Shown here: in pieces, positions 6,880-22,763 of the stretch | Layout: the number at the start of each line of letters is the position of its first letter | Numbering within the stretch: the stretch's first letter is position 1 | Virus genome (UHGV): UHGV-0007863 | Reading direction: 5' to 3' (one strand) | From: a virus | DNA: 38,717 nucleotides | Translations under genes and position numbers: made by a program | Notes under the pieces: generated by a model | Seen by the model: the letters and a program-made list of their open reading frames with translations, nothing else | Told to the model about the DNA's origin: nothing | Databases searched by the model: none

Positions 6880-7092
6880 TTGAAGATAGTAACCAGAATG
6901 GAGGCCGCAAAAGCCGGGTTAAATCGCTATTTCACAGGAAAGCGGTGCCGTCACGGCCATCTCTCTGAAAGGTATGTTCTGAACGGAACATGTGTTGAAT
7001 GTGCAATGAATAGCGCCAACCGCCATCGTAATGAATTTGCTTGTGCACTAAAGAGTGCAAGAGGGGAAACCTATGGCAAGCAGCTGGATTAA
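6880..7092 (+). CDS. Small Cys/His-rich protein at the cII position
   Basis: 70 aa with C-x-H-G-H ... C-x-x-C spacing suggestive of zinc binding; TTG start with GGGG upstream; overlaps the initiator start. Confidence 0.4.
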   Translation: MKIVTRMEAAKAGLNRYFTGKRCRHGHLSERYVLNGTCVECAMNSANRHRNEFACALKSARGETYGKQLD

Positions 7093-7903
7093 GGTTGAAG
7101 TTATCACTCCTGATAAACCTGAAATTTTTCAGATAGCAGAAATTCTGGGTATTGATCCAGATGCTGTTCTTGGAAAGCTGGTTCGTATATGGGCATGGGC
7201 TGACCAGCAAACAATAGACGGTAACGCTGGCAGCGTTACAAAAGGAGTACTTGATAGACTCGCTTTTATTACAGGATTTGCTGACGCCCTCATTAGCGTC
7301 GGATGGCTTGCTTATCATGACGGCAAACTAATTCTTCCAAACTTTGAGCGACACAATGGAGAATCATCGAAAAAACGTGCACTTACGAATAGAAGAGTGG
7401 CAGAGCATCGAAAACGAGTAACGCAAAAAGTAACGCCAACAGCGTTACAAAAGGAGTTACCAGAGGAAGAGGAAGAGGAAGATATATATAAAACCCCACA
7501 CATAGCGCACGTGCGCGAGGGTGCTCCGACCAGTGAAGCGAACGGTATGCCGTTGCAGGTGGCTGAACCTGAATTTCTGGATGGCCTGAGTGAACCCATC
7601 GGGAAATTTCCGATGACCGATGGCTGGCATCCGTCGCCGGATTTTCGACGGCGTGCTGCGCTGTGGGGAACGGCCCTGCCGGAACCGGAATTTACACCTG
7701 CTGAACTTGCTGCATTCCGGGATTACTGGATGGCTGAGGGCAAAGTGTTCACGCAGGTTCAGTGGGAACAAAAATTCGCCAGGCACGTAAATCATATCAG
7801 GGGAAAATCAAAAAACGCCGGGAAAAGCGATGAGCTTGACTGGAATAACACTGACTGGATAGAAGGGGTGTGGGATGAAATCAACTCCAGAACTTCTCAA
7901 TGA
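7073..7903 (+). CDS. Putative replication initiator (O-like) with internal iteron-like repeats
   Basis: ATG at 7073 with AGAGGGG Shine-Dalgarno; lies immediately upstream of the P-like gene; acidic linker PEEEEEED; function inferred from synteny and the internal repeats. Confidence 0.55.
   Translation: MASSWIKVEVITPDKPEIFQIAEILGIDPDAVLGKLVRIWAWADQQTIDGNAGSVTKGVLDRLAFITGFADALISVGWLAYHDGKLILPNFERHNGESSKKRALTNRRVAEHRKRVTQKVTPTALQKELPEEEEEEDIYKTPHIAHVREGAPTSEANGMPLQVAEPEFLDGLSEPIGKFPMTDGWHPSPDFRRRAALWGTALPEPEFTPAELAAFRDYWMAEGKVFTQVQWEQKFARHVNHIRGKSKNAGKSDELDWNNTDWIEGVWDEINSRTSQ
7221..7494. repeat. Candidate origin of replication inside the initiator gene
   Basis: GTAACGC half-sites at 7221(+), 7233(-), 7418(+), 7430(+), 7442(-); two copies of a ~28-bp unit GTAACGC-N5-GCGTTAC-AAAAGGAGT (7221-7248, 7430-7457) read in different frames; then (AGAGGA)x3 at 7462-7479 and an AT-rich GATATATATAAAA. 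Confidence 0.4.
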
Positions 7904-10132: not shown

Positions 10133-10666
10133 ATGAAATTCTCCAAATTTTCTGAGTTGGTGAATCGTATTTTGTTGAATCGTATTTTGTCCAACAACCA
10201 CAGCCATCGTCGCGATATGGATGTAACGATCGTTGTTCATTCGCCTGGCAGCATTGGTTCAACACCCTCAGTTGAGGTTCAGTCAATTCACGCTGGTTTT
10301 GATTGGGATTCCGGGAAAGTGCTGATTTTCCCAGCACAGCCACTGACCACTCTAACACCAGAACAGATTACTGATATTACTGATAGTGTGCGCAAAGGTC
10401 AGTCCTGGCACGCATATCAGGAATACAAGAAGCATAAAGAGCAGTTGGAAAAATTATCGATTGAACTTGATACCGCAAAACAGCGCATTGCAGAGCTGGA
10501 GAGCAATCGCGCGGCGCTGGCGGCGGAGCATGGTATTCAGATTGCAATAAATGAACTGCTTGCTCTGGCCCCGCGTCTGGATAAACGAGCGGTGGATGCA
10601 CTCTCTGTGGCTGTGGAGCACCTGTGTAAACTGATTAAGAAGGAGGCAGTCAGTGAGCAAAATTAA
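10133..10666 (+). CDS. Hypothetical coiled-coil protein
   Basis: ATG at 10133 preferred over TTG at 10121; C-terminal heptad-like region; contains an in-frame tandem 15-bp duplication at 10160-10189. Confidence 0.5.
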   Translation: MKFSKFSELVNRILLNRILSNNHSHRRDMDVTIVVHSPGSIGSTPSVEVQSIHAGFDWDSGKVLIFPAQPLTTLTPEQITDITDSVRKGQSWHAYQEYKKHKEQLEKLSIELDTAKQRIAELESNRAALAAEHGIQIAINELLALAPRLDKRAVDALSVAVEHLCKLIKKEAVSEQN

Positions 10667-16552: not shown

Positions 16553-16629
16553 TGGCGTGGCATGCAGGATTCGAACCTGCGACCAACCGCTTAGAAGGCG
16601 GTTGCTCTGTCCGACTGAGCTAATGCCAC
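16553..16629 (-). tRNA. tRNA-Arg (anticodon UCU), phage-encoded
   Basis: Manual cloverleaf: acceptor GTGGCAT/ATGCCAC, D-arm GCTC-AGTCGGACA-GAGC, anticodon arm ACCGC-CTTCTAA-GCGGT, T-arm GCAGG-TTCGAAT-CCTGC, discriminator G, encoded CCA; 77 nt. Confidence 0.85.
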
Positions 16630-16951
16630 AACGCTGAGAGCACTTAGCCTGTTAAGGCGCCACACTTTGTCGCGGCTCCATAAATGCTCTCATCGTTGTA
16701 CCCTCGTCTCTTCCGAGGCGTCACACCGAATCGCCGGGATGGTGAATCCCCGTGCGCGGAATAAAACCGCTCGACTTGCACATTCCGGCTACCTGGTTCG
16801 TTTGCCCGAGCAAGGGAGGGTGCCCCTTAAACGTATCCAGACCGCTATCGTCGCATGTGCCACACGCCGTACTGCTCAAAATAAAAGCTCACTCCACCTG
16901 TTCAATTTAACGACAAGCCAGTCAGGTTAATAACCGGAATGAACTATTTAC

Positions 16952-16966
16952 TTACCTGAAGGGTAA
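16952..16966. promoter_or_regulatory. Perfect TTACC-TGAAG-GGTAA upstream of the portal operon
   Basis: Read directly; about 90 nt upstream of the ATG at 17057. Confidence 0.6.
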
Positions 16967-17056
16967 TAATTCGTGCATTAAATGTCAACTATCTACGATA
17001 AATAAATCATATGTGGTTAAATTGGTAATAATTTAATTGCGTACGGAGTCATTGAT

Positions 17057-17263
17057 ATGTGCATGGGTAGCTCACCATCAGTGCCTGCAACACCAGAAGT
17101 TCAGGCAGCACCACAGGAGCAGGATGCCGCCGTTGTTGATGCCCGCGACGAAGAAACACGTCGCCGTCGCGCTGCTGCTGGTCGTAGTTCTACGCTGCTT
17201 ACCGGTTCTCAGGGCGACACATCAACCGCTAATACCAGCGGTAAAACGCTGCTTGGTCAGTAA
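17057..17263 (+). CDS. Hypothetical low-complexity small protein upstream of portal
   Basis: 68 aa; its translation initiation region CGGAGTCATTGA(T)ATG is a near-exact copy of the portal's (17265-17280). Confidence 0.4.
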   Translation: MCMGSSPSVPATPEVQAAPQEQDAAVVDARDEETRRRRAAAGRSSTLLTGSQGDTSTANTSGKTLLGQ

Positions 17264-17277
17264 CCGGAGTCATTGAA

Positions 17278-18957
17278 ATGGCGGAAACAACTAAAGAGCG
17301 ATTGAACAAACAGTTCGCACAACTTGAAAGCGAGCGTCAGTCGTTCGAGCCGCACTGGCGCGAGTTGAGTGATTACATCAACCCGCGTGGTTCCCGCTTT
17401 CTGACTTCTGAGGTCAACCGTAACGATCGACGCAATACACGCATTATTGATTCGACCGGGACTATGGCGGCGCGCACTCTCGCCAGCGGCATGATGTCAG
17501 GCATCACAAGCCCCGCCCGTCCGTGGTTTCGCCTGGCTACGCCAGATCCTGAAATGATGGATTATGGCCCTGTTAAGTTGTGGCTTGAGGCGGTGCAGAA
17601 CCGCATGAACGATATGTTCAATAAGTCGAATCTCTACCAGTCTCTTCCGCAGTTATACGGAAGCCTCGGCACATACAGCACTGGTGCAATGGCGGTGCTG
17701 GAGGATGACGAGGACATCATTCGCACAATGCCATTCCCTATAGGCAGTTACTACCTGGCTAACTCACCTCGTGGCAGTGTGGACACCTGTTTCCGCAAGT
17801 TCTCTATGACTGTTCGTCAGCTTGTTCAGGAGTTCGGGCTAAATAACGTCAGCGAATCCGTAAAAAGCATGTGGGAAAGCGGCACCTACGAGAAGTGGAT
17901 TGAAGTGATGCATTCGGTTTACCCGAACATTGACCGCGATACATCGAAGCTGGATAGCAAGAACAAGCCATTCAAATCGGTTTATTACGAGGTTGGTGGC
18001 GATAACGACAAGTTGTTGCGTGAGTCCGGATTCGATGAGTTTCCAATTATGGCTCCGCGCTGGGAAGTTAACGGCGAAGATGTTTATGGATCATCATGCC
18101 CGGGTATGCTGGCGCTTGGACCTGTTAAGGCATTGCAGCTTCTCCAGAAGCGCAAGTCGCAGTTGATTGATAAAGCCACCAATCCGCCGATGGTTGCTCC
18201 GACTTCCCTCAAGAATCAGCGCGCCTCCCTTCTTCCTGGCGACATCACGTATATCGATCAGATTACTGGTCAGGATGGCTTCAGGCCTGCTTATCTGGTT
18301 AACCCCAGTACAGCAGATTTGGTGGCAGACATTCAGGACACCCGTCAAATCATTAACAGCGCCTACTTTGTCGATCTGTTCATGATGTTGCAGAACATCA
18401 ATACCCGCTCGATGCCTGTTGAAGCGGTAATCGAAATGAAAGAAGAAAAACTTCTGATGTTGGGGCCGGTTCTGGAGCGTCTGAACGACGAATGTCTTAA
18501 TCCTCTCATTGACCGCGCTTTCTCGATGATGGTGCGTAAAAACATGCTGCCGCCACCGCCTGACGCGATGGAAGGTATGCCCCTGAAGGTCGAATACATT
18601 TCCGTCATGGCTCAGGCGCAGAAGTCTATCGGCCTGTCCAGTCTGGCGTCTACGGTCAACTTCATTGGTCAACTTGCGCAAGCGAAACCAGAAGCTCTCG
18701 ACAAACTCAACGTTGATCAGGCGATCGATGCATTCGCTGATATGTCCGGAGTGTCTCCAACCGTCATTGTTCCGCAGGAACAGGTTGAGCAGGCTCGCCA
18801 GCAACGGGCACAGCAGCAACAGCAGCAACAAATGATGGCGATGGGGATGGCGGCGGCACAGGGTGCCAAGACGCTAAGCGAAGCTAAAACTTCGGATCCG
18901 AGTGTTTTGTCAGCTATGGCGAATGCAGTTAGTGGTCAGGGTGGGCAATCACAATGA
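17278..18957 (+). CDS. Portal (head-to-tail connector) protein, T7 gp8-like by size and position
   Basis: 559 aa; first large gene after terminase; Gln-rich C-terminus; followed by scaffold and capsid genes. Confidence 0.7.
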   Translation: MAETTKERLNKQFAQLESERQSFEPHWRELSDYINPRGSRFLTSEVNRNDRRNTRIIDSTGTMAARTLASGMMSGITSPARPWFRLATPDPEMMDYGPVKLWLEAVQNRMNDMFNKSNLYQSLPQLYGSLGTYSTGAMAVLEDDEDIIRTMPFPIGSYYLANSPRGSVDTCFRKFSMTVRQLVQEFGLNNVSESVKSMWESGTYEKWIEVMHSVYPNIDRDTSKLDSKNKPFKSVYYEVGGDNDKLLRESGFDEFPIMAPRWEVNGEDVYGSSCPGMLALGPVKALQLLQKRKSQLIDKATNPPMVAPTSLKNQRASLLPGDITYIDQITGQDGFRPAYLVNPSTADLVADIQDTRQIINSAYFVDLFMMLQNINTRSMPVEAVIEMKEEKLLMLGPVLERLNDECLNPLIDRAFSMMVRKNMLPPPPDAMEGMPLKVEYISVMAQAQKSIGLSSLASTVNFIGQLAQAKPEALDKLNVDQAIDAFADMSGVSPTVIVPQEQVEQARQQRAQQQQQQQMMAMGMAAAQGAKTLSEAKTSDPSVLSAMANAVSGQGGQSQ

Positions 18958-22158: not shown

Positions 22159-22763
22159 TGGCCTCTGTAGTAGAGATCTGTAATCGTGCGCTGTCCAATA
22201 TTGGCAACAGCCGCAGCATTAACAGCCTGACGGAAGCCAGCAAGGAAGCGGGGGAATGTTCGCTGCACTTTGAGGCCTGCCGTGATGCTGTGCTTTCTGA
22301 TTTTGACTGGAACTTTGCTACCAAACGCGTGGCGCTTGCAGATACGAACAATCCACCGCCTGACTGGGAATATGCGTACCAGTACCCGTCCGATTGTCTG
22401 CGCATTACTGAAATTATGCTTCCTGGTGTACGCAATCCAACAGCAGCAATGCGCGTTCAGTACGAAGTTGGTGCAGACACCAACGGAACAGGAAAGTTGA
22501 TCTACACAGACCAGCCGCAGGCATGGCTCAAGTATGTATCTCGCGTTTCAGATGTGAACATGTTTGATGCCATTTTTATGGAGGCGTTGGCCTGGCGTCT
22601 TGCGGCAGCTATTAACATGGCGCTGACTGGGAATGCAGACCTCGGTACGTTTGCCCTCAATATGTACAATCGCGTGATTCTTAGTGCTGGATCGCATAGC
22701 CAGAATGAATCACAGGAACCACAGCCACCGGTTGACGAGTTTACCATTGCGAGGTTGTCCTGA
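22155..22763 (+). CDS. Putative tail tubular protein A (T7 gp11 position and size)
   Basis: 202 aa; assigned by synteny with the T7-like module only. Confidence 0.35.
   Translation: MMASVVEICNRALSNIGNSRSINSLTEASKEAGECSLHFEACRDAVLSDFDWNFATKRVALADTNNPPPDWEYAYQYPSDCLRITEIMLPGVRNPTAAMRVQYEVGADTNGTGKLIYTDQPQAWLKYVSRVSDVNMFDAIFMEALAWRLAAAINMALTGNADLGTFALNMYNRVILSAGSHSQNESQEPQPPVDEFTIARLS

Follow-up and report, generated by a model that had tools for sequence, protein, structure and literature searches.

Why do two adjacent genes of one phage, whose proteins are unrelated, begin behind the same twelve nucleotides? This question is raised by the UHGV virus genome UHGV-0007863, a stretch of 38,717 nucleotides that we call the window. 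In it, CGGAGTCATTGA, followed by T or A and then by ATG, stands at 17044-17059 before a gene for a protein of 68 residues and at 17265-17280 before the gene for the portal protein. The initial annotation had noticed this pattern, and sequence reading together with a pattern search confirmed it. It had also proposed that the small open reading frame (ORF) is a real gene, co-regulated with the portal gene and possibly derived by local duplication. In the account that we favour, each copy is the ribosome-binding region of one of the first two cistrons in a head operon, the identity of the two was derived in one lineage, and the small ORF is a genuine gene and a partner of the portal gene. We give this account as a whole a probability of about 0.75. 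The repeat itself is of little weight, since two start regions that agree over a short stretch tell little by themselves, and comparison with relatives quickly settles what it means. The more useful by-product is a very large family of proteins of 60-75 residues, which has an invariant Met-Cys start, belongs to no Pfam or NCBIfam family and is tied to the T7-type portal. The elements concerned are the following.

16952..17038, + strand: conserved leader or regulatory block, non-coding and about 90 nt long, which hardly varies among 12 phages and prophages of several genera
17044..17055, + strand: repeat copy 1, with the Shine-Dalgarno site GGAG (17045-17048) and the small-gene spacer; 3' end of the highly conserved leader
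17057..17263, + strand: small gene, 68 aa (MCMGSSPSVPATPEVQAAPQEQDAAVVDARDEETRRRRAAAGRSSTLLTGSQGDTSTANTSGKTLLGQ), stop codon TAA at 17261-17263; the same as PhiV10p06, epsilon15 gp3 and phrog_831
17265..17276, + strand: repeat copy 2, with the Shine-Dalgarno site (17266-17269) and the portal spacer; begins 2 nt past the TAA of the small gene
17278..18957, + strand: portal (head-to-tail connector) gene of the T7 type, 559 aa; PF12236 Head-tail_con at E=1.6e-187 and phrog_332 at E=1.3e-253

Two identical initiation regions

The pattern has only these two sites in the window, both on the + strand. Each copy stops 1 nt short of a start codon, the first before the ATG of the 68-residue ORF (17057) and the second before that of the 559-residue portal ORF (17278). 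When both strands of the window were searched for the 16-mer CGGAGTCATTGAWATG, no third site was found, even with two mismatches. In shuffled controls the mean was 0.06 matches, and two matches were reached in 1 of 100 shuffles. Judged by its layout, each copy with its ATG is a standard bacterial translation-initiation region, which consists of GGAG, a spacer of 8 nt and the start codon.

The small ORF is a gene

The small gene is already known, as it is annotated in epsilon15 (gp3) and in phiV10 (PhiV10p06), in both cases as a hypothetical protein. Identity of the window protein is 100% with PhiV10p06 and 88% with epsilon15 gp3, both of which also have 68 residues and are encoded between the leader and the portal gene. 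All residues of the window protein (1-68) fall on positions 3-70 of the 70 in the phrog_831 profile, at E=2.4e-36. A profile search found no Pfam or NCBIfam family for it. In comparison with 11 relatives, the ratio of nonsynonymous to synonymous substitution rates (dN/dS) of the small ORF was 0.012-0.20 in its own frame (dS 0.7-1.8) and above 1 in both other frames. By these values the small ORF is a genuine gene under purifying selection. It is thus conservation and dN/dS, not the repeat, that bear out the proposal of a real gene. A further ORF of 79 codons with a TTG start (17037-17276) overlaps the small gene in the +1 frame relative to it; it was rejected as a gene because its dN/dS exceeded 1 in every comparison.

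The gene belongs to a large family. A word-indexed search with the small protein revealed 146 relatives across Enterobacterales, and an exhaustive profile search with the family reached at least 1,497 clusters (50% identity) at E<=1e-3. Across 100 diverse aligned members, Met1 and Cys2 never vary, and Pro7, Thr46, Thr49, Gly53, Lys63, Leu65, Leu66 and Gly67 hardly do. The C-terminal motif ST(I/L)LTG..G...KTLLG is nearly invariant in the same members and present in the window protein. Among 150 listed representatives, 143 were newly found, and 114 of these start with Met-Cys. A tblastn search of the phage collection with two divergent family members gave no match; the low-complexity filter and the shortness of these proteins probably explain this.

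The small protein, of 7 kDa, is rich in Arg and poor in Lys. Its AlphaFold2 monomer is of low confidence, with a mean predicted local distance difference test score (pLDDT) of 62, one helix (residues 24-49) and the rest extended. On this model the protein is short and mostly disordered, a predicted picture typical of a peptide that folds only on its partner. A reading of Cys2 as a lipoprotein cysteine (signal peptidase II substrate) was rejected, because a Cys directly after the initiator Met leaves no signal peptide. Four relatives (P0135, P0137, P0205 and P0252) carry a hydrophobic, lipoprotein-signal-like extension ahead of the conserved Cys (MKTFILNLLLIPMG-C...). One of them, P0135, is encoded (L114, 2938-3177) on an element of about 7 kb with integrase, AlpA and helix-turn-helix genes and no portal gene. 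This gene content suggests a satellite or island that borrows the small protein.

The small gene stays beside the portal gene

The downstream 559-residue protein matches PF12236 almost completely (profile positions 2-488 of 489). In all eight phage records examined, the small gene precedes a PF12236 portal gene with a gap of 0-15 nt; in the window the gap is 14 nt. The same order, with gaps in the same range, was observed at 16 of the 18 genome loci, whose genera include Scandinavium, Kluyvera, Citrobacter, Morganella, Proteus and Pseudomonas; at the other two the script found no portal ORF. Four distant metagenomic members of the family also lie directly upstream of a portal gene, again within this range. 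Among the contexts examined, the lone exception to portal adjacency is the satellite-like element L114. The stretch with both genes was found in 547 of 5,426 complete E. coli genomes, where RefSeq labels the two products as hypothetical protein and portal protein. The small gene is thus present in about 10% of complete E. coli genomes, via phiV10-like prophages.

The initial annotation had looked to relatives for a decision, and the small gene is kept equally well where the repeat is missing. No genome was found that keeps the portal start and has precisely lost the small ORF, the case that it had named as telling against a real gene. The predicted junction of such a repeat-mediated deletion had 0 hits in IMG/VR (2.9 million viral contigs). 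The only truncation of the small ORF seen lies in a defective phiV10-like prophage of E. coli E8 (L110, NZ_CM180514.1, 1380-1707). A large deletion there has removed the terminase genes and joined a truncated DUF1064 gene to the small ORF at its 5' end, where the first three codons are replaced; the portal start region is intact.

The shared start region is restricted to two clades

Start regions were compared in 8 phage records, 18 genome loci of different genera, 80 IMG/VR loci, two divergent E. coli prophages and six Tyrion-like contigs. The exact repeat pair is present in 77 of the 80 phiV10-type IMG/VR loci, and the other three have one substitution in the portal copy. phiV10 itself is 98.9% identical to the window around the repeat. 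The six contigs of the Tyrion clade read CGGAGTCATTGT+T+ATG at the start of the small gene and CGG(A/G)GT(C/A)ATTGT+C+ATG at that of the portal gene. At the remaining loci, which make up 14 other haplotypes, the two starts share 2-8 of 16 upstream bases, equal to the null from comparisons across loci (mode 3-5). Both genes are kept, at a distance of 2-15 nt and without matching spacers, in the phages epsilon15, SPN1S, PAT1, BUCT554 and two Klebsiella phages. The same is true of prophages of Scandinavium, Pseudescherichia, Kluyvera, Superficieibacter, Pseudocitrobacter and Erwinia, and of Citrobacter, Morganella, Buttiauxella, Providencia, Proteus and Pseudomonas. The portal spacer of epsilon15, for example, is TAGGCAGAG. 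In this sample, therefore, the duplicated initiation region is restricted to the phiV10 and Tyrion clades and is not general to the gene pair.

The direction of change can also be read from these loci. Of the two copies, that of the small gene looks ancestral and that of the portal gene derived, because the former resembles its orthologues (GGAGCTATTGCT in epsilon15, GGAGTCATTGTT in Tyrion and GAGGTTATCGCT in BUCT554) and the latter does not resemble the portal starts of relatives (CGGAGTAGGCAGAG in epsilon15, SPN1S and PAT1, CGGAGCGCGCAGAG in BUCT554, CTGGAGCGCGGAAG in Klebsiella, and others).

Leader and operon layout

Upstream of the small gene, the leader at 16952-17038 opens with the palindrome TTACC-N5-GGTAA, over which the epsilon15 record annotates integration host factor and repressor sites. 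It holds GGTAATAAT twice and is nearly invariant even though adjacent synonymous sites are saturated. It is probably the control region of the late operon. No sigma-70 promoter turned up ahead of the small gene in a simple consensus scan, and a scan between the small gene and the portal gene found no promoter- or terminator-like site. Because of this layout, a conserved leader followed by two genes with no such site between them, we infer that the two genes are co-transcribed and possibly coupled in translation. The initial annotation's suggestion of co-regulation with the portal gene is thus supported in so far as one transcription unit is concerned, by the 14-nt gap, the scan and the adjacency in relatives; the repeat, from which the suggestion was drawn, is not the source of this support. 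RNA structures joining the start regions or the leader were considered and dropped, as the single-sequence fold pairs the small-gene start with non-conserved bases of the leader. A fold of the leader alignment gave only invariant A/U hairpins and no covariation.

How the match may have arisen

Building on the observed sequence, gene reality, synteny and lineage restriction, the favoured account would run as follows. The copies would be the GGAG sites and 8-nt spacers of the first two cistrons in the head-morphogenesis operon of a phiV10-like podovirus. One mRNA that starts in the leader may carry both genes, and ribosomes would initiate on the small gene at 17057. Synthesis of the portal protein would then follow either by termination at the TAA and re-initiation at the ATG 14 nt on, or by direct loading on the second GGAG. 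The portal spacer would already have had CGGAGT(C) and would have come to match the small-gene spacer (ATTGA) in the phiV10/Tyrion lineage. The route may have been a short-patch copy, by template switch or micro-conversion across 221 nt, or drift. Neither gene would need the match, and it would not be a remnant of gene duplication.

Alternative explanations

Two features of the repeat weigh against a match that serves neither gene. First, both copies have A at position 12 in the phiV10 clade and both have T there in the Tyrion clade, which hints at concerted change or selection for identity and is not predicted by a purely neutral account. Second, the TCATTG spacer survives in both copies despite near-saturated synonymous sites between the clades (proportion of synonymous differences, pS, 0.57). 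The identity could then be selected, for matched translation of the small protein and the portal protein (e.g., 12:12 per virion) or as a site shared by a translational regulator or RNA partner. The retention of the exact pair in nearly all phiV10-type loci agrees with this, as does the fact that T7 gp6.7 and the T7 portal are equal in number, 12 each (PMC11784390). Most relatives with both genes, however, have unrelated spacers, and in distant members the starts overlap upstream coding sequence, which leaves no room for a shared element. The motif is at no other start region of the phage. Moreover, the covariation at position 12 is a single event, and the portal copy of the Tyrion clade has drifted elsewhere, from GGAG to GGGG and, in one contig, from TC to TA. 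Because of this single phylogenetic event and this drift, we give selection for matched initiation, or recurrent micro-conversion, only a minor chance, and regard selected identity as such as unlikely.

Alternatively, A/T-rich spacers behind similar Shine-Dalgarno sites may have drifted to identity by pure coincidence, without copying or selection. Local repeats of this kind are common in the window: direct repeats of 12 nt within 300 nt occur at five loci, where a first-order Markov model predicts about 0.8, and at least one is present in 46% of the simulations with that model. Moreover, CGGAGTC, which is 7 of the 12 repeat bases, is also found at the portal start of the repeat-less Pseudocitrobacter prophage L014 (CGGAGTCTGAAGAG), so that only about five matches are left to explain. 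We also compared the start regions of the 55 annotated coding sequences of phiV10 in all 1,485 pairs. One other pair shares 12 of 16 positions. The pair of small gene and portal gene has the longest identical run (12 nt); the runners-up, with 10 and 9 nt, come from extended canonical Shine-Dalgarno sequences (GGAGGTGAGT). Against coincidence, this top rank falls on one of the only 54 adjacent pairs, and the same base change at position 12 is seen in both copies between the clades. What is unusual is that both copies stand in the same register to the starts of adjacent genes, not the bare 12-nt repeat. The repeat is real and modestly surprising, no more, and its origin by chance alone seems to us quite unlikely.

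Local duplication, in which the small gene was born from the portal-gene start or the reverse, was part of the initial annotation's proposal and is now very improbable. It would account for a repeat whose copies both end 1 nt before an ATG, and for this 12-nt untranslated identity only. There is no sign of a duplicated gene, because the match goes no further than the ATG, the two coding sequences differ from codon 2 onward and the proteins share nothing. In addition, the small gene long predates the repeat. It is found, with the same neighbour, in repeat-less lineages far more divergent than the age of the repeat; Proteus, Morganella, Pseudomonas and metagenomic lineages have it, and a related C-terminal motif occurs in Bordetella BPP-1. 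Finally, direct repeats that flank exactly one ORF might recall a recent cassette with a target-site-like duplication, or an ORF that is no gene, but this is scarcely credible given that all relatives have the ORF, whether or not they carry the repeats, that it is under strong purifying selection and that the IMG/VR contigs contain not one repeat-mediated deletion junction.

Other features of the window

By its best DNA matches, which are phiV10, TL-2011b and other Uetakevirus phages (epsilon15 at about 77%), the window belongs to the epsilon15 group (Uetakevirus) and represents an E. coli phage or prophage like phiV10. The neighbours of the portal gene encode the large terminase, a Bbp19-like protein, a protease or scaffold protein and a GP7-type major capsid protein. 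A tRNA-Arg gene (anticodon TCT, 16553-16629, - strand) sits between the terminase and portal modules and was the sole known RNA family found by an Rfam scan of the entire window. Beside it, 231 nt at 16640-16870 are about 81% identical to the lambdoid phages cdtI and mEp460, and this block indicates a mosaic insert.

Further local direct repeats of 12-15 nt lie at 361/451, at 10161/10176 (nearly tandem) and at 22360/22623. An 18-nt direct repeat, CAGCGTTACAAAAGGAGT, is found at 7231-7248 and 7440-7457 within a DnaT-like replication gene (ORF 7055-7903). Nearby are inverted copies of GTAACGC, followed by a run of Glu codons and an AT-rich stretch. This arrangement looks like origin iterons inside a replication gene, as in lambdoid phages.

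A possible role for the small protein

By analogy with T7, the most likely role of the small protein is in assembly or ejection, as a virion-associated protein that acts at the portal or in the tail channel, like gp6.7 and gp7.3. In T7, residues 2-15 of 12 copies of gp6.7 lie around the portal barrel, gp7.3 lies in the tail channel, and both proteins are ejected at infection (PMC11784390). A hidden Markov model (HMM) of the Met-Cys-type family scored 8.8 bits on T7 gp6.7, which was equalled by 2 of 2,000 composition-matched shuffles. Part of the family carries a Lys-rich N-terminal extension, for example P0153, encoded between terminase and portal in L116. The HMM of this N-terminally extended subfamily scored 12.8 bits on T7 gp7.3, co-linear over residues 10-87, which none of 2,000 shuffles equalled, and four of its members matched phrog_1320 (the gp7.3 family) at E 0.002-0.02. 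The only hint from solved structures was Gp17 (9vvp), a T7 gp6.7 homologue, with an N-terminal match at E=3.2. Directly upstream of its portal gene, phage BPP-1 encodes Bbp22 (135 aa; L113, 2263-2670, - strand), which ends in ...SGTMLTGPQGVDQSALTLGKSTLLGQ, the C-terminal motif of the small-protein family. The N-terminus of Bbp22 is membrane-like and is followed by a Gln-rich coiled region, and there is no Met-Cys.

Several searches count against this assignment. PF17570, the gp6.7 family (phrog_1391), gave no match to the small protein even at E<=10 and scored 98 bits on T7 gp6.7 itself. Alignment with hhalign covered only 4 columns (MCxx) for gp6.7, at 49% probability, and 17 columns for gp7.3, at 2%. 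The window protein matched neither of the gp7.3 profiles, phrog_1320 and PF11653, single-sequence and profile searches of solved structures gave no significant relative, and no expression or virion-proteomics data for the protein were found in the literature searched. Membership of the small protein in the gp6.7 or gp7.3 family is therefore not established.

A bolder proposal, which we put forward as a doubtful one, is that the epsilon15 gp3 family is the missing ejection or assembly protein of podoviruses of the epsilon15/BPP-1 type. Its gp6.7-like N-terminus with Cys2 would clamp the portal barrel, and its C-terminus would be basic and Ser/Thr-rich, like gp7.3. The protein would be present 1:1 with the portal, a ratio fixed in the phiV10/Tyrion lineage by identical ribosome-binding regions, through recurrent micro-conversion or selection. 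If the small protein is indeed a portal-bound ejection or assembly factor like gp6.7 or gp7.3, it would be a new component for models of how the epsilon15-type internal core is built and fired.

Comparison with known systems

T7 gp6.7, a core protein, resembles the small protein in being small and largely disordered, with the invariant Met-Cys start followed by a Ser/Pro/Lys-rich stretch. The N-termini are MCFSPKIKTPK in T7 gp6.7, MCMGSSPSVP in the window protein and MCISKPKVSSP in a Klebsiella relative. Each is the product of a podovirus gene that lies upstream of a PF12236 portal gene. However, the T7 gene is not next to the portal gene, as genes 7, 7.3 and 7.7 lie between them, and the C-terminal halves are unrelated (KTLLGQ in the window protein and KSAFGGKK in gp6.7). 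The likeness to T7 gp7.3 lies in the N-terminally extended members (e.g., MCGSKIKKAVKSVV...EDERRRRAAAAGQSSTILTG), which are co-linear with it (MGKKVKKAVKKV...ESGRKKARAGGKKSLSV); the window protein itself lacks the Lys-rich N-terminal part, and gp7.3 lacks the C-terminal KTLLG motif. As for the layout of the two genes, it is like that of translationally coupled cistrons in phage late operons, with a 14-nt gap, a Shine-Dalgarno site right after the upstream stop codon and a conserved order. Coupling in general requires no identity between the initiation regions, and that identity is the only unusual point here.

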